Positions 3,501-58,058 of a stretch of DNA of 64,000 nt are shown here, in pieces. How positions within the stretch are numbered: position 1 is the stretch's first letter; each line of letters begins with the position of its first letter. The stretch lies in assembly GCA_030704615.1 (NCBI GenBank), contig CM060734.1, forward strand, positions 13,268,001-13,332,000, given 5' to 3'. The position numbers and the translations under genes were made by a program. The DNA is from Takakia lepidozioides. Lineage: Eukaryota; Plantae; Bryophyta. The notes below the pieces were generated by a model that saw only the letters and a list, made by a program, of their open reading frames with translations, was not told where the DNA came from and did no database searches.

Positions 3501-3504
3501 TCTC

Positions 3505-4065: not shown

Positions 4066-4124
4066 CCACCGACAGTTTGGAGGCTGTGATGGCTGTATAT
4101 GTGTGGGGAAAAAGAAGCGAAGGG

Positions 4125-9582: not shown

Positions 9583-9620
9583 ACCGTGAGGACATGGCTT
9601 TTTGAGAAGGGGAGGGGTAA

Positions 9621-11054: not shown

Positions 11055-12489
11055 CTCATATTATTACGGTGTGGAGATATTCACCCCAATCTAGGCCCTC
11101 CCACCCTTAGCGATATCATTTTCCTACTCCCACCCGACCCCCAAGAGAGATACTCCCTATATTTCCACCCTGACACGATGTCACTCAGCATAATTACCGG
11201 CATATCCTCGACCACTTCTCCCCCTTTCACAGCCCCGCCCCTCCCCGCCCCCCCCCCCCCCCACAGCTTATCTCTACTTTTGGCCTTCCCACCAGTCTAT
11301 ACCTCGCCCTCCACACAGCCATCCATAAACTCTCTACATTCCCCACCCAACACATCCTCTTCTATCTGATCGTCCTTGTTTCCCCTCTACCAACTACATG
11401 CAACCACTTCTTTGAAACCCACTCCGAGTCCCGCTTACACTCACTCCTCCTCCGGTTACATAATCTTCCGCCATGCCCTCACAATTACCTAGCCCCGCCA
11501 CACCACCTGGCTACGCTACACTCATCTGTCAAGGTATTTTACCACTAGTGTGAAACTAGCTAGGAAATAGCTAGCTTTTACATATTGACATTTGGGATTG
11601 GCCCAAGTGTAAGTCTAGGGGTTAAGGCAGATTTAGGCCCTGGAGTGGTTATCTTCATGGCAAGCGTGGGAGGCTCATCTTTTTCGAGTTGAGCCTCACC
11701 GCGCCTAGCTATGGCGCCGTAGTGTGGATTCCCCATGGCGTGGGGTGCACTTGGCTTGACTTGTATTTGAGTGATGAGGTTATATATGCATGAGTTTATG
11801 CTTCAGCTTTGTGAGCTCGCATGAGCTTGTGCTTGTATTCTTCTTCTTTATCACTCGAGAAAGATCAGCTCGTATCTGTGAGTGCCAGATACGAGTTAGT
11901 TGTAGCACTTGTGGTTTTCGCTTGAGAATGAGAGAAACCAGGTTGTTATGCATGTGGGTTACGATATGGTAGACCTTGGCATTCGATCTTCAATTTCAGA
12001 GATAAAAGCACCATGTTGCAGGTAATTCCAGAGCACCTTGATGGTTTCAGATTGTGCACATGCATAAGCAATCACGATTGGAAAGAGGATCAATTAAGAG
12101 CAGGTTATAGTGGCTTTGGTGGCAAAGCTGAGAACTGACCTTGGGAATGCGAGCTTTCATTGTGTGAAGGATTGCAAGACCAAGCGAAAGGGCTGATTTG
12201 GCTTGGGGCAAATCAGTGCACTTTGTGGAGTATGTTGAGATTGGGTTTCAATCTCAAGGTTCAGCATTGAAAGGGCTCTTGCCATGGCAAGAGCAGGGCT
12301 GGAACAGGAGCTAAGAGGTGCGGCAAGGCCATGGAATGTGCACCTAGGGTTTCAGAGCTTGGAAGAAGAGCTCTTGCACCACAAGAGGAGTGTCTTGTGG
12401 CTGGAAATGTAAACCTTAGGGCTTTAGGAGCTTGGCAAAGGCTGTGGAGTGCTTAGTCTTGTCATAGAGAGCATCAAGGAGCCAAGGAG

Positions 12490-12910
12490 CCAAGATAGGG
12501 GGCTGATATTACCTCTTGTGTGAAGGGGATACATGTGTGGAGCATGCATTCAGCCAAGATAGGGGGCTGATATTACCTCTTGTGTGAAGAGGATGCATGT
12601 GTGGAGCATGCATTCAGCCTATTGAAGCTTCCATCTTCAAGCTTGGAGGGCAAGCAAGGAAGAGGGAAGGGCTGACTTCTCTTATGTGAGGGCAACGCAT
12701 GTGTGGAGCATGCTTTCAGCCCGTTAAAGGCTTGTATTTTTAGGTTTGGGAGTGCAAGAAATGAAGGAAGGGGCTGGTTTCCCTGTAGGGCATGTGTGGA
12801 GCATGCTTTCAGCCCGCTGAAGCTTGTATTTTCAAGTTTGTGGGTGCAAGAAATGAAGCAAAGGAACTGATTCTCTTATGGTGAGAATGGGGCATGTGTG
12901 GAGCCCATTG
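12490..12910 (+). repeat. Repeated CATGTGTGGAGCATGC(A/T)TTCAGCC motif (~5 copies) in the leader of copy 1
   Basis: Copies near 12533, 12596, 12698, 12791 and 12893. Related motifs occur in copy 2 near 59732 and 59840. Confidence 0.75.
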
Positions 12911-13414
12911 AGGCTCTTGTTTTCAAGCTTTAGAGAGCTAGAATGGAAGGGCTAGGGCTGGTTTCCACTTGGGGTGAAAGAAAAACATTTGTAGGGCATA
13001 TGTAAGTTGGGGTTTAACTTCAAGCTTGAAGGGAGCACAACTCTTGAAGCAGCAGGTGCAGGGGCTGGATTAGGTGCGAAGGGGCGTGCTATGGTCAAGA
13101 AAAACGCGTGAATGAGTGCCTACAAGGGCTGGAAGTCAGCCATGTTTGGTTAGTCGCCATAGGGATCAATGACGCTGTTTTGTGAGTTAAAAGGAAGCTT
13201 GTGCACTTAGTTTTGGTTGGAAACATCTTCCTTTGGAATTAGAGCTACTATTGGTGGTGTGTGGGAGCCATAAAGAGCAAGAATACCTTGCTGATTTCCT
13301 CACAGCCGCCATAGCTCGGTGCAAAGAAACCTAGAGTCCAAGAGACACAAACCCTAGTTGGCGTGGCTAAACCCCTTCAGAGAAATGGCTAAACTGCCAT
13401 GAGCGGCCATGGAT

Positions 13415-13815
13415 GCGGCTGTGATGGGTTGTGACGGACTGTGACAGGTTATGGCCTGTGGGGCTATGACTGACTGTGACTGGCTGTGACAGGCTGTGAC
13501 CTGTGGCCTGTGGGGTTGTGATGGGCTGTGACGTGCTGTGACAGGCTGTGCCCTGTGGCCTTTGGGGCTGTGACAGGCTGTGGCCTGTGGGGCTGTGATC
13601 CTGTGACCTGTGTAGGGCTGTGACAGGCTGTGACGGGCTGTGCCCTGTGGCCTTTGGGACTGTGATGGGCTGTTCCATGTGGCCTTTGGGGCTGTGACAG
13701 GCTATGACCTGTGGCTTGTGGGGCTGTGATGGACTGTGACCTGTGGGGCTATGACCATGTGACCTGTGTAGGGCTGTGACAGGCTGTGACGGCTGTGACC
13801 AGTGATCTGTGTGGG
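13415..13815 (+). repeat. CTGTG-rich minisatellite (GGCTGTGAC / CCTGTGG units)
   Basis: Dense degenerate array visible directly in the sequence. Confidence 0.9.
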
Positions 13816-14750
13816 CCTGTGCTGGTCTATGGTGGCCCATGTTGACCTGTGGACGGCCTGTGCTGACTCGTGGAGGCACTGGTGGACTGCCTGAGGACTG
13901 GCATGTGGTCTTGAAGGCCAAATTTTGAAGCTCGTGGAGGGCGGTTTGAGGAGTGTCTTCATGATATTCCCATGGTCATGCAAGTGAGAGAAGAGAAGAG
14001 AGGAAGAGTGTTGGGATGAGGGCATGCTGGGGTTAGGCATTGCTTTAGCTTCTCTTCCTCGTAGTTTTCCCTCTCATTAGGCCAAGACCTTTCCGTAGGT
14101 GGAGGCAAGAGTCAATCCGGGTTTGGGCTGGGGTGTCCTTACAGGAGCAACACCGTGGAGTTGTTTTTGGTGTGGGGGAGTTGTCGTTCTGATTTCTTGT
14201 GTTTGGATCCCCTCCATACCTGCATGCTTGACTGTGCGTCATGTTAGTTTTGTGTGGGCGCTTGTTTTTATAGGTGATTGGTCCGGATTTGATCACCGGC
14301 CAGTCCTAGAGCATGCTGTCGATGGTGAGGCTGGGATGATGACCAGTCAGACCATCATTGTTTCTCCTATGGTGAGGTTGGAGGTGATGACCAGCCAACC
14401 ATAGGAGTGCTTGCGGTGGATGCAGGTGCAGGTGTATGCTATGTTAGGAACCTAGTATTCCAAACCATAAGCCGCAACAGGTTCTCTACCCGGTTACCTT
14501 GTAGAGAGGGGGTTAGGGACATGTTCATGACAGGTTGAGTGACAGTTTGTCAACACGGAGGTGCCACTAGTTGCTGGGGACAGTGCCGGTTCGAGCACTA
14601 GTGATACTAGTGGGTACACGAGACAAGGTGTGCGGTTTAGGCCACCTTCACCTCCTGTGTCTTCTACGGAAGGTTCTGATTCGGATTGTGAATCAGGAGG
14701 ACTCTCACCGGCGGTGCAAGTTGTTTCCTTGCCATTTCTTGTGGGACACA

Positions 14751-15850
14751 ATGGAGGAGATGTATGGAGCTACCAAGGGGCCACGAAGGTACTCTGGGGC
14801 GGTGGGCACCATCGAGTTGGATGACTTTATCCAAGAGTTTGATAGTTGGTGTGACTTGCAGCAAATGCGCAATCCACAACTGTTTACGCCTTTTATGGCA
14901 TGGAAGGGGCTATTTCAGCACCTTGAGGGGCCGCCCATGGATGATTACCATGAGTTCAGGTGGGGGCATGAGGTTGAGATGGAGGAGTGGATGATGTACT
15001 GGTCACCCGACTATGTCTCCATCACTAGGGGCACTAGAGCCACGAGGGCAGTGGCTACACCTGCCGCTGCACCGGCAGCTTCAACAAGCAGCAGTGGGAC
15101 TGGTGGTACCGAAGCTACGATGTCCACCCAAGCCACTACCGCACCAGTACCAGTACCCGTGCCTGCCTTCAACCCTATTATGGAGTTCTTCGAAGAGTTG
15201 AGAGGGAACTACCAAGGGGGTGAGGACAGAGAAGTTGCGGAGCTTGCAAGAGTTCCAACGGAAGCCTACTGAGAGCTTGAGGGAGGCTTTCACTCGCATG
15301 AGGCGCTTGATAAATGTAACCCAAGGGGTTACGGAAGCTCATGCAGTCCAATTCTGGTATGGGATATTGGACAAGGAGTTGAGGAGAAGGGTGCGGGATG
15401 CAACTCTCCTACAAGCGGCCCAACCCACCTTAGCAAATGTGTTTTTGCTGGCAGAGCAGATAGAGCTCAACATGGTGGAGGAACGAGTGGTCACGGTGGG
15501 ATTTACTAAGGAGACACCACGGGGTAGTGGTGCTCCTAGCCAACCACTACCTCAACGTGCTCAAGGTAACAAGGGGGCTCAGGTGAAGCTCAGGGAAGGA
15601 CAGAGAGGACCTCAGATGCAGGGGTCTCTCCCTTCATTTGCAGGCCAACAACGGGCGGAGGTGGTGTGTTGGACATGTGGAGGACCCCATATCAAGAAGG
15701 ATTGCCCAGAGGGAGGCAAAGGGCCGGCACATGCATAACCTGCACAATTGCAGTGTGGGCATTGTGGCAAGCACGGGCATGGAGAGGCCCAGTGTTATGG
15801 TTTGCATCCTGAGTTGCGCCCAGGCCAGTTCCAAGGGAATAATGGTGGCC
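14751..15850 (+). pseudogene. gag: gag-like ORF with two CCHC zinc knuckles (copy 1)
   Basis: ELDDFIQEFDSW and FQRKPTESLREAFTRM, knuckles CWTCGGPHIKKDC and CGHCGKHGHGEAQC. Frameshifted. Confidence 0.75.
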
Positions 15851-16679
15851 GGGGGCGAGGTGGAGCCGCCCAGAGATGATGAGGTGGCCAGGCACAAGGT
15901 GCAGGCTAAGGACAAGCTCAACATGGCCAAGGACGTGGAGGTCAGGGTGTTGACCAAGGCATGGCCAACCGGCTTCAGCAGCTAGAGTAGAGGCTCGCTG
16001 CCATGGCTACAACTCAGGTGGTACCGGCTCCAAGGCCGGATGGTCCACCTCCGGCTCCTGAGGGAGGAGATATGGGAGGCATGGGATTCATGTGCGGGGT
16101 AGCACTACCACCAGTGCAAGTGGAGTCGGCGGCGGCAGTGACCCGAGGAGCAGCACGAGTTCCTGAGCCACGAGGTGCAGAGGTGGAGTTGGATCCACAG
16201 CGTGGGGAAGCAAGCCGTCAGGCGAGGCTTCCTCAATCATTCACATTGGCGGAGACAGTGTCGACGTCATCCATGGCACCTAGTTCTCGCCCGATTGTTA
16301 CCGAGGCGGAGGTTACTATGTCATTGGGGAGAGCTACATGGGCAACACCACTACCTAGTGTTGCCAAAGCTACGGCAGCTAGTGTCTGCTGGGAGCGGCC
16401 ACATCTTGTGTGCCAGGCTCCATTGTTCTCGGCTACCATAATTGCGACGCAGGGGGTAAGACCAGCTGAGGTGTTCAGGCTGGCAGCTACACTCTGTGAG
16501 AGTGGGGAGGTTACTTCATCTTCTGCGGAGATAGTGGGAGGTGTAGTGCCGGAGGGATCCTCGGATTTGAGGGTCAAGACTGCCACGGCGGCACCATGGC
16601 AAGTTGCAACTGTCAGGTTGATGGAGCTGTCAGCTAGGCCAGCCATTGAGCGCGCCATGGTGACACCTGGAGTTGTCAT

Positions 16680-17050
16680 GGTAGACAACCAGGATGACAT
16701 TTTCTGTTTGAGTGTACCAGCAGGCAAGAGGTACCGGCCACTACGGGTCTTGTTGGACTCGGGGCTCAGCCATTGATGTTGGGCAGAGCTGCTATTATAG
16801 GCTTGGCCTCACGGAGGCGGATATGGAGCCTTGTCATTTCTAGATACAGACGTCTCTGGGAGGATTGAGCAGGCTCGGGCATGACACGGCGTGAGTTGGC
16901 TATCAGACTACGGCCGGATCACCCTATAGATGACTCAGTAATGTGAGCCAAGGCCATTGTGACAGACGCGGTCTCATACGATGTCCTAGTTGGTGGGGCA
17001 GTGTGGTACCCCATGGGCTTCACCCTGGATTTTTGGGAGGAGTCAGCTTC
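16680..17050 (+). pseudogene. Aspartic protease domain (copy 1)
   Basis: RVLLDSG active-site motif at ~16744 and YDVLVG at ~16977. Confidence 0.7.
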
Positions 17051-17439
17051 CTATAGGCTGGATGGCAGTCAGGGAAGGCCAGCGTGTGTCAGCTCCTGTG
17101 ATGTTTCATAGGAGGAGTTGCGGTTGCCCAGCGGGGCAAGATGCCGACACTAGCAACATTCACAGCTGCAGTGACTTGGCCTGGATAGTTGCTAGAAGGG
17201 CAACACCATTCAGAGGATGACACACCTCCAGAGCATGATGACATGTATGGTTGGCGGAGTTGCCTGCCATGGTTGCTCAGACTCCAGTTGGGGCACGAGC
17301 AAGGATTTGCAGCACGGGTTGCTGATCGACGGGTGCAACAAGCCTGGGTGGAGGCTTTTGTACCCTCAGGAGAGGAGAGAGTGCGGGGATTGCACCAGGA
17401 CCACCTCAGTTGTCTCCATTGGACACCACACCTATTTTG

Positions 17440-18410
17440 TGGGCAGTATCCGGATGAAGGCTTTGCCTTCTGGACTTGTTTGGTGGGATCAGCCCGGATT
17501 GGCTGCTGTGCTACAGTAGGTGTACGAGTTCGATGTTACTTATGTGGCGAGGGATGAGATGTACGACGCGTCTCACTTCACCATGTTTGCCCAGTTAATA
17601 CACAGTACCCTGAGTTGTTGCCGGTGTGCTGCGTGATTTCGTGGATACCAGCAGACATTTCCTTGCTGGGGGCGCAAGATTTGGAGCGGGTTGGCTCCAT
17701 CCACTTGGTATGGCAGGTTGGCCTTGCCAAGGGCATTCATCACCGGGCATGGCAATGGATTGCGAGACTCGAGGTCGGGTCTGTTTTGGGAGATGGTGCG
17801 GGTTTTTGCGCCACTTACAGCTTCATCAGCTGTTCTCTCCGGCATACTCTTGCGAATGCCACTGAGGGCGATTCTCGGCCAGGGTGATGGCCAGTTGCAT
17901 CAAGTCCGGTCGTTGGCTTGGGTGAAGCAGTTGTTGGATGTGGAGTGTAGCTGCAGGGGGGTCACGGGCTCATCGTCCATGGCTATGTGGACTACCTTGA
18001 TGCAACCCGCACTGCTTAAGCATGCATTTGATGGGGTACAGCGGCGCACACACCTCAAGTGGATAACAGTTGGACACAGAGAGGCAGTCTCAGCGTGTGA
18101 GACACGATGACCGTTTGCCTTTGGCAGTGGTCAACAAGGTGGGTCAACCACAAACAACATTACCTACACTGCTCAGCTTCCTAGGATCGCATGCCTTTCC
18201 GGATAGTGGACCTAGCCTCCTGTGGGATGCTCAGTTGCAGCAGTTAGTGGAGCCTAATGCTGACGAGCGTGAGCGGGCAATGGGTTTTACCATTGGTACC
18301 ACAGCGGTGCCGTCTCTTTCTGAGGCATCACGTCGTCAGGTGTTAGGGCAAGCAATGGATCTCAATTGCTTGACCTGGATTATCAGCTTGGCTATGGCTG
18401 AGCAACGCAA
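17440..18410 (+). pseudogene. DNMT3-like C5 cytosine methyltransferase domain inside pol (copy 1, frameshifted)
   Basis: LLDLFGGI (motif I), GWPCQG (IV), GLRDSRSGLFWEM, a degenerate VI, ERERAMGF (IX) and RRQVLGQAM (X). Confidence 0.85.
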
Positions 18411-18859
18411 AGTGCGGAGTATACTTCCCTTGATGGTCTCTCTGCCTACCGAGACGGTACAGGCAGTGAGTGGGGGCAAGTAGGTGAGGACCACGGGGTG
18501 CAGGCATCCATGGCACACGTGGGAGGTGCTCGAGGTTCAGAGGGAGTTGGCAGCCAAGGCGGCGGTGATGGATGATGTTGGGGATTTTTTCTCGGTGAGG
18601 AAGTCCTCAAGGATGAGATGATGGGGCAGGATGATGCCTCCTTGATGATCAGCAGGGAGTACTACTCAAGAGGTTGCAACATAGCAACCACTGGACGCAT
18701 CCTCTACCTCTCAGCCCACTGGACTTAAGGTTGTAGTTACAGAGGACAATTGGGAGCCTGACATTGGACCCATTGTCACCGATGATAGAGAGACGTAACA
18801 GTGGTTTCCTGAGGGCTTACAGGAATTGCTTTGCCTTCAGTTTGAAGGACTTGGAGCAG

Positions 18860-20170
18860 TAAGTGTCAAGAGATCTGTTTGAGTTGGCCACTTACACGCC
18901 AATCTTTCGGAGACCCTATAGATACAGTGACATGGAGAGGTCTTTGATTCAGATGAGGACTCAGATCTCTGGGAGGCAGGTTTGGTGGAGCTCTCTTGGT
19001 GGAGAGTATGCTTCAGCCACAATGATGCCAGCTAAAAGGATGTCTATGGCAATTGGACGGAGACGTATGTGTGGTGATTACCGGCCTGTAAATCGTCAGA
19101 CTAAGTCCGATAAGTATGCCATGCCTACACTGGAGGAGATCTTTGATGCCATTGGGCATGCTAAGGTCTTTAACACTTTTGATTTACGATCCGAATATCA
19201 CCAGTTGTCGATCAAGGAGGCGGACAAGCGAAGGACGACATTCTGGGGGATCAATGAGCACGACAAGGATTGCCTATAGCAGTGGCGAGTCTTACCATTT
19301 GGCTTAAGAACGCTCCTGCAGAGTTTCATAGGAGTCATGGATAGGATTCTAGCATGGTGGACTTTGCTCGGTGCTACATAGATGACATCATCATCTTTAG
19401 TGCTACGGTGGAGGAGCATGAGAGACAAATCTTCAGGTGGATTGGAGCGCTTGAGAGCGCATGGATTGAAGTTGCATCCGGGGAAGTGTAATTTTTTCCA
19501 CACCAGATTGAGTATCTGGGTCACATGATATATCCTGGAGGATTGGGGGTACAACAGACTAAGGTAGAGGCTATTGCACAAATTCCACGCCCCCCGGATG
19601 TGAGCCGAGTTCGAGCTTTCATGGGGTTAGCAAACTACTATAGACGGTTTGTCAAGGGATTTAGTGCTATCGCAAAGGCTCTAACCAAGCTGACAAGGTG
19701 GACCAGGAGTGGCAGTGGGAAGATGAGCAGGAACAAGCTTTTCCAAGAGCTCAGGCGAGGTTTCCTCGGCTCCTATCCTGAGACGACCTATCAGGGGGCA
19801 TCCCTTTCAGCTGCATACGGATTGGAGCATGCTGGGACTTGGAGCGGTGCTCACACAGGTGGATGATGATGGAAGAGAGTTCGTAGTGGCTTATGCTAGC
19901 CCGCTCGAACAACGCTGAAGAGGCTAAGTACAGCTTATATGAGGGAGAGTGCTTAGCTGTAGTGTTGGCCGTGGGCACACTTCAAGTGGTTATCTTATGA
20001 CAATCTTTTCAACCCTTGTCACGGATCACACACCACTCAATGGTTGATGGAGTCAGACAAGCTTACGGGGAAGCTTGCACGGTGGGCACTCATACTCTAG
20101 GAGTATGACTTTCAGGTTTGTGCATCGACCGGGTTTGGTCACGGGATGCGGATGGATTGAGTCGCATCCT
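18860..20170 (+). pseudogene. pol: Reverse transcriptase and RNase H (copy 1)
   Basis: RMCGDYRPVN, FDLRSEYHQ, YIDDIIIFS, RAFMGLANYYRRFV, LHTDWS and YEGECLAV. Confidence 0.9.
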
Positions 20171-20529
20171 GCACGAGCCAGCAGGATGACACTGAAGCTC
20201 AGTGGCATGTGAGACGGATGAGGAGATGGTGCCACATCGCATGTTGTTTGTGTATCTTGGCAGCGGGAGGTCAGATTGGACCTACAACAGGGATGACTAT
20301 AGACGTATTTTGAGGACCCTGAGGCTAGGATCGAGCCAGGTTGTGCCAGAGATATAATGAGGATTCGGCTGTGTTGGACTACCTCCGTACTGGAGACACG
20401 ACAACCACTGTGACTGCCAAGGAGAGGGATCCGATCCTGCAATGAGCAAGAGGTTCAAGTGGGAGGGGATACACCTACTCCGAGTGTAGGAGGATGGTCG
20501 GGTGAGGATTGTGCCTCACCCAATACAGC

Positions 20530-21735
20530 GTGCACGGCTAGTGCGGCATACCCATTAGGAGTTGGGGACATTTTGGAAGTGCGACGCACTCACAGTTTAC
20601 TGTCAGGGGGTAGTATTGGTGGCGTGGTATGCGTACAGAGGTGCAACAGTCGGTGGCTAGGTGCATAATGTGTGACAAGGTGCGTGCTTCAATCATGGGG
20701 GATTGGGCTACAGGTGGAGTCTTGACTTCGCAGGACCGTTGCCACTGACTAAATAACACCACCACAAATATGTGTTGGTGATGGTGAGCACTTCTCCAAG
20801 TGGATTGAGTTGGTTCCATTGCCTGACAAGGCTAGTGAGGGGGCTGCGTATGCATTCTTGGATCGTGTGCTTAGCCAATTCGGTGCTCCAGCTGAGGTAC
20901 TCACGGACTAAGGGAGAGAGTTCTTGGGGGAGTTTCAGGTTTTGTGTGATAAAGCCTTGATAGACCACCGCACCACTTCTCGGGATCATCCTGAGGCCGA
21001 TGGCTTGGCAGAGAGAGTTGTTCAGACGGTGAAGAGGGGTTTGCGCAAGTATGGCTTGCAGAAGGGACACCTAGGAGATTAGGATCTTCAGGTGCTTTGG
21101 TTAGCCATGGGCTACAGGTTCGCCAAGCAAGCATCACTTGCTTCCTTCTCACCATATTTCCTTCTCTTTGGCCAAGAGCCGGATTTGCATGCTGCCATTC
21201 GTAGGGACACTGCTTAAGTTCTTAACCTTGATGATCCGGACGTGTGGATACGTGCATGTGATCAGCGTGCAAAGTTGTTCAAGAAAGTCATGCCCATGGC
21301 TTTTGAGAACCTTGCCATTGCACAACACCGTGACACGTTGAGGTATGCCACTATACGTGGTGGAGGACATCGTCCTGGGGTTCGGAGGTTTAGCCCTGGT
21401 GACTATGTTTATTTGCAGCAGACTGCTCATACAACCCTGGATGTGATTGCAGGGCGTGTTATTCTGAGGGTTTGAGAGGTGTTGCCCTCACGAGTCCTGA
21501 TCCTAGAGGGTCGGGATGGCATAACTTGTGCGTAATTGTACGTCATGTCACCTTCCCAATGTCGATGGCAGTGGTACCTGAAGGTTTGAGGTGCATGCTC
21601 TGTGGGTCTGCCAAAGGGGCAGCCACCATGCTGGTGTGTGATCGATGCTTAGGAGGTTGGCACATGGGATGCTTGACACCACCTCTTGAGAAGGTTCCTG
21701 ATGGAGATTGGTTGTATCCACACTACTTGGAATAG
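20530..21735 (+). pseudogene. DDE integrase with C-terminal PHD finger (copy 1)
   Basis: WSLDFAGP, VLTD and ADGLAERVVQTVK. PHD CMLCGSAKGAATMLVCDRCLGGWHMGCLTPPLEKVPDGDW at ~21590-21730. Confidence 0.88.
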
Positions 21736-22959
21736 TGGCAGTGGACATGACTAGAGGCAGCTAACAAGACATGGGAGGCCAAGCTCATAGGAGTCAATAC
21801 ACGAGATCCCAGGCTCAAGTTCATAGGTTGCAAGACGGCGACTAACGATGGGGCAATTCTTGCACCCGACCTCTTGATCTATCGAGTTTGAGTGTAGTAG
21901 GGACAGTGGTGGAGGACTGAGGCTACAGTCACTATCACATCTTGTGGCTACCTGGACTTAGAGGGACCTAAGCACCAGCTAGGGGGGCGATTGTGTGGAC
22001 TAGTGACTGCCATAGTGGGCAGCATAGTGGCAGTCTAGTGGTTGGACTAGTGGTATACTAGTGTGTGGTATGCACATGTGTTGTGTGGTTTGGGACAGCG
22101 ATGTAGTTGTGTAGCGATATGTATGCGCACGATACATCTCTCCACTTATTGCAATCCCATCCAGGCACGGTGCACAAGGTTCTTGGTGACCACCTAGCCA
22201 ACACCACCCCTACCCCAGAACCCAGCACCACCATTGACAAATTTACCTTCCTCTCCCCAGACATACTCACTGCTACGCTAAAAGCCCTCACCCCTCTCCC
22301 GGGATTCTCCCCCCCACCCCCAAACCCATCACAGTTATCCACATCCCCTTTACCAGGCACAGCTCCATCTGCACGCCTCCACATCCCAAATATCTGCACT
22401 AGTTCCTTTACTATCACATCTTGGAACGTTGGCTACTTACTACTAGCATTCAGAGCCTCATCCATCTCCTAACAGACTTCACTCCCCCCCATATTATCAT
22501 GCTGCAAGAGACCAAATTGCACACACGTAACACTAATAGCTCTTACATCAATAAACTTCTCCCAGACTACTACCTATTATATGATAATCCCCTCACTGCC
22601 CCCACAATGTCTTCTTAGGAGATCAGCCCCGTACAAACCCACTAGGGGAGGCGTTGCCCTTGGCATCCTACGCTCCCACCACTCACCCAGCACCACCACA
22701 AAAATCACCTTGCCCATACATCTTAGGTCCCACCTCCAGATTGTCCACTTACACCCGTCAGCTCTCACTCCCATTTTACTAATTCACTTGTATATGCCCT
22801 CACACGATGAGGACCTGCCAATGATACCCGAACTCCTAAGCACCATATCCACTACTATTACCCACCTGACCACCAACAATACCATGTCATATTGGCAGGA
22901 GACTTCAACAGGGACATTGCACTTCTTGGCCATACCAACGAATATAATAGGTGAGAGGT

Positions 22960-47158: not shown

Positions 47159-47957
47159 TGTCGTGTACCTAAGCATCGTGCCACAACATACATCGTTGTC
47201 CACCACACAATCTAAGCACACAATCCTAGATTACCACAATGATAATGAAAGTGAACATAATTGAAACCCTCCACTCAAGAATCCACTCAATCACATAAAC
47301 TAAGTCAAGCCAAGGGCACCCTTGCTAAGGGAATCCACCCTACAAAGCCCCCACCACACTCTCTCTCTCAATACCTAGAGCTATGGAGGTGAGAGAGGCT
47401 CATGGAGGCTCAACTACAAGAAGATGAGCCTCCTCCATCCTCACAAGCGGAAAACCTATCCCATGTCCCAAGTGAGGCTGGACACCTCACTTGGCATGTG
47501 AGACCAAAGGAAGTCCCAACACACAAAATATAAATATAAATATATAAAATGTCTTAATTAACGAAAAGTAGGTAATTCTAGATAACCATGACTAAAACCA
47601 TGACAGCTGTCGTGCACCTAAGCATCGTGCCACAACATACATCGTTGTCCACCTCACAATATAAGCACACAATCCTAGAAAGTTATACCACAATCGCCCC
47701 CCTAGCTGGTGATTAGGTCCTTCTAACACCGGATAGCTGACAAGTATCCATCCCAATAAGATCATCGCGTGGTCATCAATCACCCCCAAGTCCCAGTATC
47801 TGAAGGCAATAGATCAAGAGGCCGGGTGCAAAAGTAGCCCTATCGTTACTCGCCTTCCTGCAATCCATGGCTTTAATTGGGTGTCCATGGCATTGAACTC
47901 CCGTTAGCTAGACCTTGGATCACTTGTCAACCTCACCACTGTCATGCCCCACTACCT

Positions 47958-48892
47958 CTATCCAAGGCATCATGGACACAACCATTCTCCACTATGAACC
48001 TCCTCAAGTGGCGGTGTCAAACATCCTATGTGTCACCCCCCTTGAGCATTTGTCACACACCAACATGGTCGCGGCACCACCAGCATGCCCACATAGCATG
48101 CAACGCAACCCTGCAGGTACCACTGCAAGGTTGGGATCTATCCTCCTATCCACATGTGGAAGGTGACATGACGCACAATTGCGTACATGGTCCTTCCATA
48201 CCATGCCATTTCGACCCTCCAGAATCAACACTCCTAAAGGCAACACCTCCCGGACCCTTAGAATCACACGACCTGCTGTGACATCCAAGGTCGTAGGCGT
48301 TGTCTGCTGCAGATACACATAGTCCCCAGGATGGAAACGCCGAACACCTCGCCGTTATCCCCCTCCACGTATAGTGACATACCTCAATGTGTCTCAGTGT
48401 TGGGCAATAGCAAGGTTCTCAAAAGCCATAGGCATGACTCTCTTGAACAACTCTGTCTGTTGGGCACCTGCTTGTGTCCACACATCATCAAGGTTGAGGA
48501 CTACTGTAGTCTCCCTGCGAATAGATGCAGGCAAATCTGGCTCTCGGCCAAAGAGAAGGAAATAAGGCGAGAACGAGGCAAGTGATGCTTGCTTGCTAAA
48601 CCTGTAGCCCATGACCAACCAAGGTAGCTGAAGGTCCCAATCTCCCAAGTGTCCCTTCTGCAAGCCATACTTGTGCAAGCCTCGCTTGACTATTTGTACA
48701 ACCCTCTCGGCCAAGCCATCAGCCTCGGGATGATCCCGAGAAGTAGTGCGGTGATCTATCAAGGCTTGCTCACACAAAGCCTGAAACTCCCCCAATAACT
48801 CTCTCCATTTGTCCGTGAGTACGTCGGCTGGAGTACCAAATTGGCTAAGCACTCGATCTAAGAATGCATACGCAGCCCCCTCACTTGCCTTG
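47958..48892 (-). pseudogene. Integrase core/C-terminus and PHD finger of copy 2 (N-terminal part at 55842-56170)
   Basis: HEELGHFG...CMVC...WSLDFAGP...LPDK joins ASEGAAYAFLDRV...VLTD...ADGLAERVVQ across the nested element. PHD begins CMLCGHAGGAATMLVCDKC. Confidence 0.88.
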
Positions 48893-51800
48893 TGTCGCGG
48901 CCCTTTGCCTTGAGGGCAGGGGGTCGGGACACATGAGGGCTGCCCCTGTGGTGGGGGGCAGCGGCAGCGATAGGTATGGGGGGCTGAAGCACCCTTGAGT
49001 GCCCAAGGCACTCAAGGAGGCGGAGGCGCTCACTAGGTGGAGCCCCGCACACCGGGTTGCGGTGGAGGTGGCTCCACAAGGGTGGTGGTTTAGTGGGACT
49101 TAGTGGGGTGGCATAGGACTCACCATGGGGGTGGAGACCTCGAGGTGGGAGTCGTGGGGAGTCTTGGGACTCATCACGGTCCATTGGGGCCGCGGTGAGT
49201 GGGCCAAGACTCACCGCGACTCACCACCGGGAGTCGAGGGTTTTCGTGGTGGTTCGCCATAAAATGGCATGGCTGGTTATGAAACCCCCGCGGACAGCTA
49301 CAGAAGTATATATAGGGAGTAGTAACCCCGAGAACGGTGCAAGCCCGTTGGTGACCAAAAACTAGTGAGAAGCGAGCGAGCGGAAAGCGACCAAAGAGTG
49401 GGGAGCTGTTCCGGACTGCCATCTACCAAAGGGAATTCTCCTAGTCCCAAATAGGTGGAGGGTTTAGAGGGAAGCGGAAGGGGACCGTTATGTCCCGGTG
49501 AGCAGCCGAAACTCCAAGTTGGCCCGGCGGCCAGGTTGGGAGTCAGGCGCGCGCATCAAAGCGAGTAACTATGACTTGAAGGGGAGTTTACCGAATGAGG
49601 TGTGCGACACTTGGTATCAGAGCTTAGAGTTCAGTACGCGATCGTCCTTGGGATTGGCCTCATCATGGGGTCGGGCAAGCCGAAGCGAAAGCGGAACGGC
49701 CCAAAAGATGATGACCCGGTGAGCCCGATGGGGGCGACGTGTCACCGAGGCGGCCGTTTGAGGAAGCGATTAATGTTTCCGAAAACGAGGCCGCTCAGGA
49801 GCGGGAGGAATCCGAGGAGTCGGAGCCCGAGGAATCTTGAGAGCTCCGACAAACCAAGAGATGCCTCCCATGCCGGCAGCCTTTTGGGAAGGGTTGTTGG
49901 CGCAGTTTGGCGGGACGTTGAAAGACGTGTTGAAGGCGGCTAATGCCACTTCCACCAAGGCAAAGTTTAAGGTGAAGCCTAAGGAACCCGGCACCTTCGA
50001 GGGCGTTCGAAACCGGAAGGCACTCAACACCTGGCTCCTGGAGCTAGAGCAGTACTTCCGGGCGGCCAAGTTGAGTGACGAGGATCGGGTGGAAGTGGCT
50101 CCACCTATTTGAGGGGCTATGCTCAACAATGGTGGCAGAAACGCCTTCACGACCGAGGCCCAAGCCCGGAAACCTTGAACTGGAGTGGTTCAAGGAATTG
50201 ATGAAGAGACAGTTTGTGCCCCTCAACGCGTCCTGGCTTGCCCGGGACAAGATGAGGAATTTGAAGCAAACAGATGACATTCGGGGGTATGTCCAGGCTT
50301 TCAATGTGCTGTTGCTCGAAGTCGCGGACATGGCAGAACCAGAAATGGTCTTCAACTTTGTGGCGGGACTGGCCCCATGGGCTAGGCGGAAGTTGGAGGA
50401 GAAGCCACCCAAGACTTTGAACGAGGCAATTGAGAGAGCTGAATGTTTCTCGGATGTCCCTAGGGGTGAGAGACAAGGCCGTACGGAGCTGAACCACAAG
50501 AAGACCCGGCGGGAAGGTGACTCCTCCGACCGGAAAAGAAGTGGGATAGGCCACGCGGCGAAAATGGCACGTGGAAATCGAAGGGAGGCCTTCACACGTC
50601 AAAGGCGGCACCCGGTGCTTCGAAAGGAAAAGCGGGTGGAGCGCTTATGGCGGACAGAAGGCGACCTTTGATGGAGTGTGTTTCAATTGCGGGGAGCCCG
50701 GGCACATGGCCAAGAAGTGCACGAAGCCCCGGCAATTGAACATGACTCGGGCGACCACGGAGCTGTCGGAAGATACCATCAGTCGCTTGGTGGAAGCGGT
50801 GGTCGCCAGGACTTGCAAGGTAGGCAAATTTTCTTTGTGAGTTGTATCAGGAAACTGGCGCCTTACGAAAAGGGAGTCAGTTGTTCGTGGATGGGATAAT
50901 ATCCGGAACTAATGTGTCGTTGTTGGTGGACACAGGAGCGTCGCACTCCTTCATGACGCGGCGGCGCGAAAGTTGGGACTCCCGACAAGTGACGTGGGGG
51001 CCTCTATTGAGGTGCGCTCTGCCAAAGGAGAACCTCAGTTGGCGACAAGGTTGGCGTTTGATGTTCCTCTTCAACTGGGGAGTTGGGAGGGACGTGAGAA
51101 CTTCACTATCTGCGAGATCGATGGAGTGGATCTCATTTTGGGATGACCTTTTTGAGCAAATCCGGAGCGGTCATAGATGGCCGCAAGAGAGTAGTCACGC
51201 TGCCATGTGGGAATGGTGGCGAGGTTTTACGAGTGTCGGAAACGCCCAAATCCGTGGGAGGGCGAATAAACCTTCTATCAGCAAAGGAGTGGGCCGTGGA
51301 GGAGACACACGAGTCCCAGTTTTTGCTTTACATTAGAGAAGTGAAAGGAGAAGGCGATGGGGAGCCGAGCCCAGATTGGATCAAGGGGATTTTGGAGAAA
51401 TACCAGGATGTGATGCCGGAGGATTTACCAAGCGGCTTGCCACCGCGAAGAGGAGTTGACCACAAAATTGAGGTGATACCGGGATCGGAACCGCCTGCCA
51501 AGGCGCCCTACCGGTTGAGCCACAAAGAGTTGGTCGAGCTGAAGACTCAGCTCAAAGATCTAATGTCAAAGGGGTACATCCGGCCGAGTAAGTCACCTTA
51601 CGAGCCCCGGTGCTATTTGCAGACAAGAAGGATGGGACGCTGCGGATGTGTGTCGATTACAGGGCTCTGAATAAGGTGACTATCAAAAACCGGTACCCTT
51701 TGCCAAGGATCGACGACCTCTTCGATCGGTTGGCAGGAGCGAAGTATTTCAGCCGGATCGACTTGCGCTCCGGCTATCACCAAATTTCGGGTGGCGGAAG

Positions 51801-54800
51801 GAGATGAGGAGAAGACCGCGTGCAGGACAAGGTATGGTTCATATGAGTTCTTGGTGATGCCTTTTGGGCTCACCAATGCACCAGCGACATTTAGCACGCT
51901 GATGAACAGCCTTTTCCAGGAGTGGTTGGATGACTTTGTGATCGTGTACATCGACGACATCTTGGTGTACTCGAAAACAAAGGAGGAGCACCTGGAGCAC
52001 CTCAAAAGGGTGTTCCAAAAATTGCGAGAAGGGAAGCTGTATGCCAAAGCTTCAAAGTGCGAATTCGGGGTCACAAAAGTGGAGTTCTTGGGCATGTGAT
52101 TACACAGGATGGGATCAAAATGGATGACAGAAAGGTGAGGGCGATCTTGGACTGGGAGCCTCCGACTTCGGTCCCGGGAGTGCGATCCTTCCTAGGACTC
52201 GCCTCCTATTACCGGAAGTATGTGAGAAATTTCGCCAAGATCGCGGGGCCGCTGTCGGACCTTCTGTGTAAATCCAAAGTCTGGGTATGGAACACATTTT
52301 GTGGCCAAGCTTTTGCTGAATTGAAGCAGCGGATGACGGAAGCTCCAGTCTTAAAAATCCCGGAGTTCGATCGTCCGTTTGAGATTCATACAGATGCATC
52401 GGACTTCGCAATTGGGGGTGTACTTATGCAAGATGGACGTCCAGTGGCTTACGAAAGTAAGAAACTGAATGAAGTGGAGCGACGGTGGCCGACGCACGAA
52501 AAAGAGATGAAGGCGGTGGTACATTGCCTTGAACTCTGGCGCCACTATGTTGGTTCCAACCCAGTGAAGGTGTTCACGGACAATGTCACGTGAAAGTATT
52601 TTGCCACGCAGCCCAAGTTGTCCCCAAAACAACTTAGGTGGCAAGATACTTTGGCAGTGTTCGACGTGGATATCCAGTACAAACCGGGACGGGACAATGT
52701 GGTGGCCGATGCTTTAAGTAGAAAGCAGCAGCTCTTGTTGGTGTACAAGGGCGAGACGGCGCTCCAAAGGAAGATCCGGAAGGCTTGCCGGAAGGATGAG
52801 CTGGCAAAGTGCGTGATGCAGACTTGAGAATGGGGGTTAAATCGCAGTTCCACTTGCAAAACGGACTGCTCCGGTATAAGCAAAAACGTCTCTATGTGCC
52901 AAAGGGAGGGATCAGGGATAGTCTCTTGAGAGAATGCCATGATAGCCCGCTTGCGGGCCACGGTGGAGCCAAGCGCACTGCGGCACTCTTGAAGAAAGAG
53001 TATTTCTGGCCCAAACTGAGGGAGGAGGCAGAGGAGTATGTCAAGACATGCACCACATGCCAACAAAACCGGAGCGAGTATAAAAAGCAAGCGGGGCTGT
53101 TACAACCCTTGCCGATTCCAGAGGGGACTTGGGAAAGCGTCTCGATGGATTTCATGACTGCTATGCCGCTGTCAAAAGGATTCGATGCAATCATGGTGGT
53201 GGTAGATAGGTTCAGTAAAATGGCCCATTTCATCCCCACCAAGGAGACGGCAACGGCGCAGGAGACAGGGCGACTTTACTTCGCCCACGTCTTAAAGCAT
53301 CATGGAGTCCCGAAGGATATTGTCTCGGACCGCGATCCAAAGTTTACGAGTAAATTCTGGAGAGCACTTTGGAAGAAGATGGGGACGAGGCTGAAGATGA
53401 GCACCGCCTTCCGACCTACGACGGACGGCCAAACGGAAAGAGTGAATTCCGTAGTGAAGCAATTCTTGCGGAATTACGTGTCGGCAGACCAATCAGACTG
53501 GATGGAACACTTAGACGCGGCAGAGTTCTGTTATAATAACACAGAACACTCCGCGACGGGAGTTTCCCCTTTTGTGTTGGTCTATGGAAAAGCACCTCTG
53601 GTGCCGACAAGTTGGGCCGCCCAGGACGTTGAGGAACCGGCAGTAGCGGCGGTACTGGAAGAACGCGAGCGTTTGTTGAAGCTCGCAAAGTACAACATTG
53701 CCAAAGCTAGGAAACGGTATGAAAGGCAGGCGAATCGGAAGCGGAGGGAAGTGAAGTTTGAGGCAGGCACAGAGGTCTGGTTGAACATCAAGAATTTTCG
53801 ACTACCTCCGGAAATGAGTCCGAAGTTCGTACCTCCGTATGCGGGTCCCTTTCGCATTCGGAGGTTATGAATGAGGATGTGTATGAATTGGAGCTGCCAG
53901 CAAACAGCAAGGTGCACCCAGTATTCCATGTCTCCCTTTTGAAGCCTTACTTCAAAGATGAAGCACGTCCGAATCGGCAGCAAGTGTTGCGTCCGCCACC
54001 TATGCTGTTGGATCATGAAAATGAACCTCAATGAACCCGAGTACGAGGTGGAGGCAATACTTAAGTCGAGGAGGTTCAAGAACCGAGAAATGGAGTATCT
54101 CGTCAAATGGAAGGGCTATCATCTTGTGGAGGCATCTTGGGTGCGTGCCTCAGAAATGGGAAACGCATCCGAGGCAGTTGCAGCGTTCGAAGGGCGACCT
54201 CAAAAGCGGAAGAAGCGTTGATGGGGACATCAACCTTGGAGCGTGGGGGAGGAAATGCATGCTTAGCCCGGTTTAGCTAGCTCAGGAATCCGATTGCAAA
54301 AACTTGTATTGTACAAAAATTTGTGATAAAGGAAATGGGTTCCAAATATTGTGCGTCCTATTGTGTTTGGAATGGTGATGCATGGTGTGGTTGGCTGGTG
54401 TGTAGAATGCATGCTAGCTTACAAAGTGGGAGAGGTAAATTGGGTTAATCGTGTGTTTGCGCAGTGCCGAAATCGGGTGACTCCCATCCAAGGGGCAAGG
54501 AAACTTGCGCCTTATTTGGGAGTTCAAGTGCTAGTGCGCACCTGGCGCGTGCGCGTACTATAACTGCGCTACCGAGGGGGTTGCCTTGTAGTGCGGGCTA
54601 ACGCGGAAGCTACGTGCTTCCGTTCACGTACTATAATCGTGTAGCCTCGGGACGAAGTCGTAGTGCGGCTTCGGCGTGTTCCCGTACCTCAGGCCAGCAT
54701 TCCAAGGCGGACCCAATTGTAGTGATTGGGGCGCACGGTTGGTTCAAGGTTATCTTCCTAGTCAAAGAGGGTTTCAGGTGAACCCTTGCTCAAGGTGATG

Positions 54801-55841
54801 CCAAAAGCGGCATCATGAGCGATCGCAAGCAATGTTGTTGCAGTAAGGCGATTCGATCCTCGGGGAGGATCGTTCCTTGGCCTTGAAGTAGGCCAAGAAG
54901 AGTGCACTGGGAGGAGCTGGAGAGGCTCCACCCTTGGCCGGGACTTGGAGGAAGTCGGCCGAACTAGCTAGTGGAGAGTGGAGTCAAGTGTGGGGTTTGG
55001 TTCTTTGCCATGGGACGCCATGGTACGGAAACAAACTCCTTGATGTGGGACGCCACAACTTGGATGTTCGTTTCTACAAAATGGACAAGTCGATGAGGAC
55101 ATCGACTCCCTGTTGGTAGGGGTGTGTGTCGCGGCCCTTTGCCTTGAGGGCAGGGGGTCGGGACACATGAGGGGCTGCCCCTGTGGTGGGGCAGCGGCGG
55201 CGATAGGTATGGGGCTGAAGCACCCTTGAGTGCCCAAGGCACTCAAGGAGGCGGAGGCGCTCACTAGGTGGAGCCCCGCACACCGGGTTGCGGGGAGGTG
55301 GCTCCACAAGGGTGGTGGTAGCTTAGTGGGACTTAGTGGGGGTGGCATAGGACTCACCATGGGGTGGAGACCTCGAGGTGGGAGTCGTGGGGAGTCTTGG
55401 GACTCATCACGGTCCATTGGGGCCGCGGTGAGTGGGCCAAGACTCACCGCGACTCACCACCGGGAGTCGAGGGTTTCGTGGTGGTTCGCCATAAAATGGC
55501 ATGGCTGGTATGAAACCCCGCGGACAGCTACAGAAGTATATATAGGGAGTAGTAACCCCGAGAACGGTGCAAGCCCGTTGGTGACCAAAAACTAGTGAGT
55601 AAGCGAGCGAGCCGGAAAGCGACCAAAGAGTGGGGAGCTGTTCCGGACTGCCATCTACCAAAGGGAATTCTCCTAGTCCCAAATAGGTGGAGGGTTTAGA
55701 GGGAAGCGGAAGGGGACCGTTATGTCCCGGTGAGCAGCCGAAACTCCAAGTTGGCCCGGCGGCCAGGTTGGGAGTCAGGCGCGCGCATCAAAGCGAGTAA
55801 CTATGACTTGAAGGGAGTTTACCGAATCGAGGTGTGCGACA
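48893..55841 (+). mobile_element. Full-length chromovirus (Galadriel-like Ty3/gypsy) nested in the integrase of copy 2
   Basis: LTRs 48893-49609 and 55127-55841 (TGTCGC...GCGACA), TSD CCTTG, iMet PBS TGGTATCAGAGC at 49612-49623, PPT at ~55115-55124. Confidence 0.96.
49660..54221 (+). pseudogene. gag-pol: Chromovirus gag-pol (gag, CCHC, PR, RT, RH, INT, chromodomain), frameshifted as assembled
   Basis: [53 protein letters not shown] and chromodomain YEVEAIL...EYLVKWKGY...SW. Confidence 0.93.
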
Positions 55842-56867
55842 CCTTGTCAGGCAATGCCACCAGCTCAATCCATTTGGAGAAATGTTCCACCATCACCAAC
55901 ACATACTTGTTATGGCGAATCGTTAGTGGCAATGGGCCTGCGAAGTCAAGACTCCAACGATAGCCCAAACCCATAATGGGTAAAGGATGCAATTGTGGAG
56001 TAGGTGCATTGAAAGAAGCCCGCACTCTATCACACACCATGCACTTTGCCACTAACTGTTGCACATCCGTGTGCATGCTCCGCCACCAATACTGTCTTTG
56101 CAACAAACTATGAGTGCGCCGCACTCCAAAATGTCCCAACTCCTCATGGCCATGGCGTACCAATCACGCTCGTTGTGTTGGATGAGGCACAATCTTCACT
56201 CGTCCATCCTCCCGTACTCGGAGTAGGTGAGTCCCCTCCCACTTAAACCTCTTGGCTCGTTGTAGGATCCGATCTCTCTCCTTAGCAGTCACACTGGCTG
56301 CTGTCTCTCCAGAAGGTAGGCCAACACTGCTGCATCTTCATGTATATCCTTAGCACCACCAAGCTCCTCACTGATCTCTGGATCGTCATGCACACTATCT
56401 CTATAACCAATCACATGGGATGGACCAGCTTGAGCTCCCATTGCTAGAATGCACAAAAAGGCAGATGCGTGCCATCTTGATACCATCTCCTCGTCCGTCT
56501 CACCATGCCAACGAGCTCCTGTATCATCAAGCTCACTTGTGCATGGATTGCGACTCAATCCATCCGCATCCTGATTGACTATTCCGACTCGATGCACCAC
56601 CTAGAAGTCGTACTCTTGAAGCATAAGTGCCCACCGTGCAAGCTTCCATGTAAGCTTGTCTGACTCCATCAACCACTTCAATGATTGGTGATCCGTGACA
56701 AGGGTGAAGAGATTGTCATAGAGGTAGCATCATACTGCAGCTAGACACTCCCCTTCAGAGGAACTATACTTCGCCTCGGCATCATTGTTCGAGCGGCTAG
56801 CATATGGATGGAGCATAGCTCCAATCCCCAGCATACTCCAATCCATATGTAGCTGGCCCAAATGTAG

Positions 56868-57581
56868 ACGATCATCATATCGCACTCTCTGTGGTTGCCT
56901 CCCTTGGTCCAAAATGCCCTCAACCATGAGGTTGGGTGGCCGTTGAATGGAATCATAGGCTCTCTTGAGCAACTCTGGTGGTGCAAGATTGGTCCACCAT
57001 AACCTAGGCCTATGTGCCCGTGAACCCAATGCAGCTGCATCCAACAATACAGCTGGTCCAATCCATGACCGGATCTGATGCACACTGGCCATAACCCTGG
57101 CCCGAGAATCCCCCATGAGAGGAACATTCTCCAAGATATAGGCTAGAGGTTGCATTTGCCTCGTCTGCAAGTCACGCAACATTCTCAACATCTCCCAAAA
57201 CAAATGCGATCGTGCATCATGCAAACCATTACCATGACCTGCGGGAGAATATCCTTGGCAAGGCCACCCTCCTATCACCAAGTCAATGGGACCATGCCGA
57301 TCCAAATCCTCCGTCCCCAGTATGGTAATATCTGTTGGCAAGGTCTTTTGGTACCCTTGAATTGCTGAGAGAGGCAACAACTCAGGATACTGATGTGTGA
57401 GCAAGGCAACATGGCGCATGGAAACATGCCGAGCAATCTCATCGTTCTCCACATACAAGTACTTGCGTACTTTGATTCCTGTTTGCAACACTCCTGCAAG
57501 CCCAGTGCTCATGCCTCCAAACAGGTCTAGCAAACAAATGCCTGAGTCAGGTTGTTGCCAGATAATAGGCACTGTGTCCAA
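56868..57581 (-). CDS. DNMT3-like C5 methyltransferase domain, motifs I-VIII in one open frame (copy 2), truncated before motifs IX-X
   Basis: LLDLFGGMSTG, YVEND, DIT, DLVIGGWPCQG, RSHLFWEM, YILENV and AHRPRLWWTNL in ORF 56730-57581. Confidence 0.92.
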
Positions 57582-57719
57582 TGGAGCTAACTAAGGAGGT
57601 CCAGGTGATGTCACTGAACTCCCCTCACCTACCGATGGAAAGGTCTCCTGCCATGCTTGCTGCACACATTGGCTTGACACTTGCTGCAAATCCCCAACTG
57701 TACCCTACAGTGAGCTATG

Positions 57720-58058
57720 CACAGGAACATGAGGAAGCAATTCAGCCTTGTGCTGGTGTCGCCGCTGCCCTTGTGCCTCTAGTGATGGAGACATAGTTAG
57801 GTGACCAATACTCTCGCCGCTCCTCAATCTCCACCGCATGTCCCCGCCTAAATTCATGGTAATCATCCATGGGCTGCCCCTCAAGGTGCTGGAATAGCCC
57901 CTTCCACGCCATAAAGGGCGTAAACAGTTGTGGATTGCGCATTTGCTGCAAATCATAGCAACTATCAAGCTCCTGTATGAAATCATCAAGCTCGATGGTG
58001 CCCATAGCTTCAGAGTACCGACGTGGCCCCTTGGTAGCTCCATACATTTCTTCCATCG
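57720..58058 (-). pseudogene. gag: gag N-terminus of copy 2
   Basis: MEEMYGATKGPRRYS...ELDDFIQE, highly similar to copy 1 at 14751. Confidence 0.8.

Follow-up and report, generated by a model that had tools for sequence, protein, structure and literature searches.

A split-repeat gypsy retrotransposon family with a DNMT3-like cytosine methyltransferase in the moss Takakia lepidozioides

Two copies of the element and their surroundings

The window is the whole stretch of DNA that we analysed: 64,000 nucleotides of contig CM060734.1 from Takakia lepidozioides (assembly GCA_030704615.1, positions 13,268,001 to 13,332,000 of the forward strand). It holds two copies, from sister families, of a retrotransposon that encodes a cytosine methyltransferase (DNMT). 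Copy 1 is a dead member of a high-copy bryophyte Ty3/gypsy family. Profile matches in the window show the domain order of Ty3/gypsy elements, which is protease, reverse transcriptase (RT), RNase H, and integrase. The DNMT lies between the protease and the RT, which is where a sequence-only reading of this DNA had placed it. The features of copy 1 are (in window coordinates):

11527..22134, plus strand: whole element, in the A-coding-B form (joints are seen in other copies, and read depth climbs and drops at its ends)
11523-11526 and 22135-22138: 4-bp target duplication CATC, which abuts both element ends
11527..11852, plus strand: repeat A1, which starts with TGTC (other copies have joints from 11852 to 21990 and from 22132 to 11526)
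11678..11689, plus strand: primer-like 12-mer in the loop of a hairpin in A1, complementary to the 12 nt directly 3' of A1
11853..11864, plus strand: primer-binding site, not of the tRNA type (it lacks TGG)
14751..16700, plus strand: gag region with zinc knuckles, frameshifted (47-57% identity to P0005 from Marchantia; zf-CCHC, Retrotrans_gag weak)
16746..17057, plus strand: aspartic protease, frameshifted (LLDSG near 16753)
17461..18384, plus strand: DNMT3-like C5 cytosine methyltransferase domain, in five pieces (profile match)
18682..18690, plus strand: conserved stop TAG followed by CAA CCA, which matches UAG-CAR-YYA, at the end of the Gag-protease-DNMT frame
18750..19520, plus strand: RT, frameshifted
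19799..20097, plus strand: RNase H (profile match)
20614..21172, plus strand: DDE integrase (profile match)
21592..21720, plus strand: PHD finger, 3' of the integrase (PF00628, E 7e-8)
21975..21989, plus strand: polypurine tract, which abuts repeat B
21990..22134, plus strand: repeat B

Judging by contig depth, the family of copy 1 is very abundant in Takakia. In run X1, the summed contig depth (which is not the same as copy number) was 2.9-3.7e5 over the DNMT and 4.9-5.0e5 over the RT, versus 107-876 in the flanks. At two sites within the DNMT, copy 1 differs from other copies in the same organism by single-base indels, so the breaks at these sites are private to copy 1.

Copy 2 is on the minus strand and has the full set of repeats:

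47159..60958, minus strand: whole element of the sister family, full A-coding-B-A-B form, with the 4-bp target duplication TACG
60599..60958, minus strand: repeat A1, 94% identical to A2
60780-60769, minus strand: primer-like 12-mer
60598-60587, minus strand: primer-binding site
56868..57542, minus strand: DNMT, open over profile positions 1-231 of 321 (PF00145, E 1.4e-14)
47608..47689, minus strand: repeat B1, after the polypurine tract, which joins A2 via the palindrome CACGACA-GC-TGTCATG
47240..47605, minus strand: repeat A2
47159..47239, minus strand: repeat B2, 96% identical to B1 over 72 nt, which terminates in GACA

The first two-thirds of the copy 2 DNMT are open. An internal deletion took motifs IX-X and the RT, and fused the DNMT to the RNase H. 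The integrase of copy 2 is interrupted by an unrelated, ordinary chromovirus (49128-55847) with LTRs of about 490 bp, a chromodomain-like C-terminus, and a tRNA-type primer site (TGGTATCAGAGC). Its ratio of observed to expected CpG is 0.87, versus 0.40-0.54 in its surroundings, and a profile search found no DNMT in it. Copy 2 itself lies within a 624-671-bp tandem repeat (44990-47158 and 60959-61350), at the centre of the palindrome GGGTGTTGCGTACGCAACACCC.

Just 3' of the primer-binding site (11870-11900 and 60580-60550), both window copies have a stable hairpin whose loop is GAGT, and it is maintained via wobble changes between them. This is possibly a packaging signal. The hairpin was not evident among the Sphagnum-like loci. 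The leader of copy 1 also contains short-period tandem repeats of TGTGAC/GTCACA (13410-13830), and related ones are found at 5590-5770 and 9710-9840, in another element. That element is 9 kb long (1482-10510), with terminal inverted repeats of about 670 bp (96-98% identical). Its ends read TGTC...GACA, and it seems to have a 4-bp duplication in which one position differs. A broken integrase of the rve-like type lies near 5190-5350. We take the element to resemble a Ginger-type DNA transposon. The frame at 22473-22960 has no Pfam match but encodes a VILAGDFN stretch, which is typical of LINE endonucleases.

The methyltransferase and its relatives

A homologue-built custom profile was needed to trace the DNMT in copy 1. 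It matches in five collinear pieces and three frames (17461-17496, 17561-17707, 17704-17856, 17742-18056, and 18070-18384). These cover profile positions 2-321 of 321, and the last piece has E 5e-38. The strings LLDLFGG, AGWPCQG, LFWEM, GSRAHRP, and ERERAMGF...RRQVLGQAMD can be read directly, and motifs I, IV (WPCQ), VIII, and IX-X are recognisable. The sequence-only reading had quoted several motifs: GPIDLVIGG, ENV, and AHRPRLWWTNL are intact in copy 2, but the quoted motifs are broken or changed in copy 1. PF00145 matches copy 2, but none of the five open DNMT pieces of copy 1 has a Pfam match on its own. The predicted domain is 53-69% identical to 21 of the 27 homologue matches, and its resemblance to these methyltransferases is not due to chance.

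When we ranked PDB entries against a single sequence, DNMT3A was first (54.6 bits), ahead of DNMT3B/C, DRM2 (30 bits), and HhaI (23 bits). With a 71-sequence profile, DNMT3A scored 93.9 bits, DRM 47-59 bits, and HhaI 42 bits, and the C-terminal motifs aligned as well. For phage methyltransferases, of which 5 of 723 matches were tested, the scores were 50-60 bits (single sequence) and 56-75 bits (profile). The motifs run from I to X without permutation, unlike in DRM. We rejected DRM, MET1, and CMT origins because of the motif order and the PDB ranking, and on the same comparisons we judge the label "DNMT3-like" to be sound, as originally suggested. An AlphaFold model of the domain has low confidence (pLDDT 42.5), and its top Foldseek matches are DNMT3A and DNMT3B, with an rmsd of about 8. 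The ESM Atlas gave only generic PF00145 clusters, which are for the most part from phage. Among 33 candidate viral contigs there was one weak match, and it is unconnected with the element. The phage C5 methyltransferases L082-L086 are themselves DNMT3-like: they match human DNMT3A/B best in the PDB, and the two that we tested reach 86-100 bits, which is above the score of the transposon's enzyme.

The DNMT is a trait of the family, as proposed from the sequence alone: we found 80 further loci. Relatives that are about 53-69% identical come from Marchantia polymorpha, Calypogeia fissa, and Sphagnum troendelagicum, with further matches in S. fallax (44%), M. paleacea, Riccia sorocarpa, and S. 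tenellum. Remoter relatives are found in Closterium, Scenedesmus, and Klebsormidium nitens (GAQ93235.1, our P0151). P0151 is a partial protein that ends just past the DNMT. In a quick IQ-TREE analysis of the DNMT, copy 2 fell in a clade with the Marchantia, Calypogeia, and Sphagnum proteins (support 100), which bears out the description of this locus as land-plant-type. This tree holds 88 of 139 rows, after random removal of 51 rows with the RNase H-DNMT-integrase order, and it includes no host DNMT3. In it, the element enzymes, including that of K. nitens, form one group against three phage enzymes, with P0151 on a long branch. An RT-RNase H tree (23 rows) gives the identical three groups. 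No host DNMT3 was among the matches of our homologue searches, one of which gave the best 120 of 470.

Across 193 homologues, the order was protease-DNMT or DNMT-RT in 48, and the DNMT lay between RNase H and integrase in 71; another 73 were DNMT-only fragments, and one lacked the domain. The 71 proteins with the order RT-RNase H-DNMT-integrase-PHD (P0036 and P0177 from Scenedesmus sp. PABB004, and about 70 metagenome proteins) form one group in both trees (support 98 and 99). The existence of this group indicates that DNMT-bearing gypsy elements reach the chlorophytes and that the DNMT has moved within pol.

Between copy 2 and the Sphagnum-like family, the DNMT has pN of 0.25 at a saturated pS of 0.75, and the C-terminal part of the copy 1 DNMT has pN of 0.20 at a pS of 0.75, again saturated. 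A rough between-family dN/dS is 0.08-0.12, based on the 10-12 of 25 pairs that were not saturated. Within the Sphagnum-like family, the ratio is 0.50-0.57: pairwise dN/dS is 0.57 for the DNMT versus 0.42 for the RT, and among its dead copies, the shared variants give 0.50 for the DNMT versus 0.37 for the RT, while private variants are near neutral (0.85). By these estimates, the DNMT is under purifying selection between families but is held less tightly than the RT.

A conserved stop codon, split repeats, and a putative primer duplex

The sequence-only reading had the DNMT embedded in the polyprotein and packaged with pol. This part does not hold: an in-frame stop separates Gag-protease-DNMT from RT-RNase H-integrase. 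The stop lies 16 codons upstream of the RT and was kept, at the aligned codon, in 45 of 47 copies (28 TAG and 17 TAA). These 47 linkers are from the window copy and from the 46 loci, out of 81, that span the DNMT to the RT. In Takakia contigs the stop is invariant, with no variant at or above 3% across four runs. In one run that may be of RNA, a contig runs across the stop with no joint, but we do not count this as evidence. The proteins P0005, P0007, and P0008 from Marchantia, P0004 from Calypogeia, and P0009 terminate at the residue that aligns with it, and in L074 (44% identity) there are stops at an equal distance from the RT. Because of this conserved in-frame stop, the DNMT is at the end of the Gag-protease frame and is not part of the RT product. 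This alters the expected dose of the enzyme, as the DNMT becomes a Gag-level product. In M. polymorpha, P0005 is an uninterrupted Gag-protease-DNMT frame of 1278 aa.

A sister group (P0212-P0228, P0029, and P0030) has open Gag-protease-DNMT frames, the longest of 1451 aa, which run on for 71-188 aa past the domain and include no RT; the stop may therefore predate the bryophyte clade. Two proteins from related elements, P0074 and P0198, have no stop. Gag-level amounts of DNMT are not required by all such elements, since some relatives lack the stop or place the DNMT between RNase H and integrase.

The repeats are split. Copy 2 reads A1-coding-polypurine tract-B1-A2-B2, and the position of the polypurine tract, ahead of B1, identifies B+A as the true LTR. 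The full A-coding-B-A-B layout was found in 5 of the 35 loci of at least 9 kb; most of the remaining loci do not reach both ends. Copy 1 is A-coding-B, and contigs of its family show both A-to-B and B-to-A joints. Copy 2, L009, and L011 carry the palindrome CACGACA-GC-TGTCATG at the junction from B to A, and decayed forms occur elsewhere. The termini are TGTC...GACA, with 4-bp target duplications that are perfect in 5 of 7 elements and have one mismatch in L038. L056, the seventh element, gave no clear call. The five perfect duplications represent four independent insertions, since L052 and L073 seem to derive from the same one. The palindrome at the B-to-A junction and the 4-bp duplications suggest that the integrase cuts circular DNA in the middle of the LTR, and the combination of split repeats with a DDE integrase implies integration from a circle. 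LTR-finding programs would overlook or mis-annotate elements with this layout, which may explain why we did not find this abundant bryophyte family in the literature that we searched.

The window family has no tRNA-type TGG site 3' of A1, unlike the neighbouring chromovirus. Instead, the 12 nt that follow A1 match the complement of a 12-mer located 158-170 nt upstream, inside A, and this 12-mer always has TGAGCC after it. All 12 positions pair in both window copies. Across 25 copies (two more loci that lack the end motif were excluded), at least 10 of 12 positions pair in 19 and at most 9 of 12 in 6; in three of these six, the anchor was misplaced. Among three families, 5 of the 12 positions have changed on both sides. 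Also, the end of the duplex coincides exactly with the end of A in the A2-B2 joint. Since this 12-bp duplex between the LTR and the primer site covaries among three families, it suggests self-priming without a tRNA. The sequence-only reading included neither the split repeats nor the PHD finger, nor the putative self-priming duplex.

Possible roles and comparison with known elements

We propose that the element-borne DNMT3-like enzyme is likely packed into the particle in amounts like those of the capsid protein, and that it likely acts on the newly made DNA of the element, which would be methylated before it integrates. We give this proposal about an even chance of being correct. The element's RNA would prime itself, with the 12-mer of repeat A annealing just after A1. 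Reverse transcription would produce B-A-coding-B-A, whose ends would join into a circle via the A2-B2 joint. The usual substrate of an integrase has CA 3' ends with 2-nt overhangs, which a staggered cut would give. The integrase would cut the ACA-GC-TGT palindrome (ACAGCTGT) within one LTR to create CA ends with 2-nt overhangs, and would insert A-coding-B-A-B. The A-coding-B form of copy 1 could arise from a one-LTR circle or by later recombination between B1 and B2. RT, RNase H, integrase, and PHD finger would be supplied through occasional readthrough of the stop. Meanwhile, the methyltransferase, co-packaged with Gag, would mark the long-lived extrachromosomal DNA in the circular stage, most probably at CG (by analogy with SymbioDIRS-Dnmt3), so that the element would enter the genome pre-methylated. 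Copy 1 has no signature of self-methylation, as its observed/expected CpG (0.46) equals that of the neighbouring DNA (0.44-0.54); depletion of CpG and CHG is not diagnostic of self-methylation.

An active enzyme might instead work in the nucleus on chromatin, where it would methylate integrated copies or new sites and so damp the family or shape its targets, with the PHD finger (21592-21720) guiding integration. A Gag-level product could perhaps be freed by the protease and act in trans, and slowed retrotransposition and effects on insertion sites are among the options listed by de Mendoza et al. (PMC5890265). However, Pfam finds only gag, knuckle, protease, and DNMT domains in the homologous proteins, with no targeting module of the DNMT's own. 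The DNMT also stays linked to particle proteins in both of the positions that it occupies, and the family is very abundant in Takakia. We consider a chromatin role unlikely.

Returning to packaging of the enzyme, we infer that RT-RNase H-integrase is made by readthrough of the stop, but there are other ways to bypass it: reinitiation past the stop, an internal promoter, or splicing. The DNMT would still be in the Gag-protease product. In retroelements, RT packaging depends on fusion to Gag, which argues for readthrough, as do a linker that leaves the DNMT and the RT in one frame in 33 of the 47 copies and a CAA directly 3' of the stop in 44 of 47. UAG-CAR-YYA is a tobamovirus-type readthrough signal that is known in plants (PMC3542737). 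On the other hand, the exact CAR-YYA context is found in just 2 of 47 copies (40 have CAACCC), and an ATG sits two codons 3' of the stop in 43 of 47, so reinitiation is possible; this ATG is missing from the window family and from L074. A hairpin 3' of the stop scores z of -1.7 to -3.4 in the Sphagnum-like family and is absent from the window copy (z 0.0). The junction of Candida Tca2 did not by itself direct readthrough and contained a minor promoter (PMC2194720), and the gene models P0010, P0011, P0018, and P0024 skip the stop, although these are only predictions. Overall, expression without readthrough seems a little less probable to us than a chromatin role.

Our proposal also assumes that the enzyme is a catalyst. 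It could instead be non-catalytic or RNA-directed within the particle, for instance by binding the DNA circle or the genomic RNA. Bulk production would fit a structural role, the Klebsormidium enzyme was inactive in yeast (PMC5890265), and ECQ replaces PCQ in 62 of 170 full-length domains, including many algal-type relatives. But among these 170 domains, the motif IV Cys-Gln is present in 144, EN(V) in 154, RxR in 155, and motif X in 154. The catalytic Cys, ENV, and RxR are retained between lineages that are just ~30-45% identical, and the bryophyte clade has WPCQ. This makes a non-catalytic role improbable.

That the DNMT is a neutral passenger recently taken from a host gene, with the split repeats as recombination debris, is largely refuted already and in our view very improbable: every copy that we read is decayed and private variants are near neutral, but the domain is intronless and under purifying selection between families, the same repeat layout and target duplications recur in independent insertions, and the DNMT has an identical position behind the protease from Klebsormidium to Marchantia (P0151, with knuckle-protease-DNMT, is collinear with P0005 from the protease through motif X, at 29% identity over 569 columns and E 1e-54).

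More speculatively, pre-methylation might be part of the life cycle of an ancient green-lineage gypsy clade (chlorophytes, Klebsormidium, desmids, liverworts, and mosses) that self-primes, circularises its DNA, uses a DDE integrase to cut a palindrome in mid-LTR, and pre-methylates the circle with a capsid-stoichiometric DNMT3. Such a life cycle would be undescribed for LTR elements, and we offer it as a tentative and rather doubtful synthesis. If it is correct, then land-plant transposons write their own 5mC, and intact Marchantia copies that are annotated as genes (such as Mp4g09160) provide a model plant with de novo methylation of transposon origin. The question of what retrotransposon DNMTs do dates from 2018 and has been held up by their hosts, which were algae with poor genetic tools; the uninterrupted frames of M. 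polymorpha would allow testing in a transformable land plant. Also, counts of "DNMT genes" in bryophytes may include such transposon frames.

Among characterised proteins, the closest PDB match to the element's enzyme, C-terminal motifs included, is the catalytic domain of DNMT3A/DNMT3B. The element's enzyme differs in having an insertion of ~35 aa between motifs I and IV, in having WPCQ instead of SPCN, and in lacking PWWP and ADD domains.

DNMT-bearing retrotransposons are already known, as the sequence-only reading noted. KnitGypsy-Dnmt3 of Klebsormidium nitens combines gypsy domains with an intronless and unrearranged DNMT3-related domain (de Mendoza et al. 2018, PMC5890265), and like the Takakia family, it has DIRS-like A-coding-B-A-B repeats, gypsy order, and purifying selection. 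Because the Klebsormidium protein has the same protease-DNMT arrangement, we view the Takakia family as a land-plant variant of KnitGypsy-Dnmt3. It is a variant and not a plain member because its DNMT and RT do not share one open frame: the DNMT of KnitGypsy-Dnmt3 is described as in the Pol ORF with the RT, whereas a conserved stop separates the two in the Takakia family. The hosts also differ: the present one is a land plant, and the 2018 paper assigns the capture to the lineage of K. nitens. It is the tree in that paper that supports an origin from a host DNMT3. The Klebsormidium enzyme gave no methylation in yeast, which its authors deem inconclusive. The main text of that paper does not mention Marchantia or Physcomitrella, and a PHD finger (0 matches), a palindromic B-to-A junction, 4-bp duplications, and a self-priming duplex were not found in the text that we searched.

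SymbioDIRS-Dnmt3 from Symbiodinium is another split-repeat retroelement with a DNMT3-type domain, and its domains methylate CG de novo in yeast (PMC5890265). It uses a tyrosine recombinase, while the Takakia family has a DDE (rve-type) integrase, TG...CA ends, and target duplications. The rve-type integrase, the TG...CA ends, and the 4-bp duplications also argue against membership in DIRS/Ngaro. Troyka elements, with CG...CG termini, a 3-bp duplication, and animal hosts, are unlike the window family as well.

Self-priming has been predicted for Tf1/Sushi and for the Tcn1 gypsy elements of mosses and club mosses (Neumann et al. 2019, PMC6317226). Predicted priming without a tRNA is thus shared with the Takakia family, but Tcn1 has a chromodomain and ordinary LTRs, whereas the Takakia family has split repeats, a DNMT, and, in place of a chromodomain after the integrase, a PHD finger. 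That survey, in the text available, has no mention of PHD or Marchantia. PHD fingers are described in algal transposons, in papers whose accessible text does not cover the Takakia family (PMC8557442, PMC9940879, and 10.1101/2021.11.30.470311). A later paper restates the range from the 2018 paper as "streptophytes and dinoflagellates" (PMC12344493). We found no report of such a family in bryophytes in the literature searched, which left most subscription journals and Repbase outside its scope. Taken together, the range in land plants, the Gag-level placement of the DNMT, the pattern of mid-LTR integration, and the putative self-priming duplex bring the role of such enzymes within reach of tests in Marchantia.
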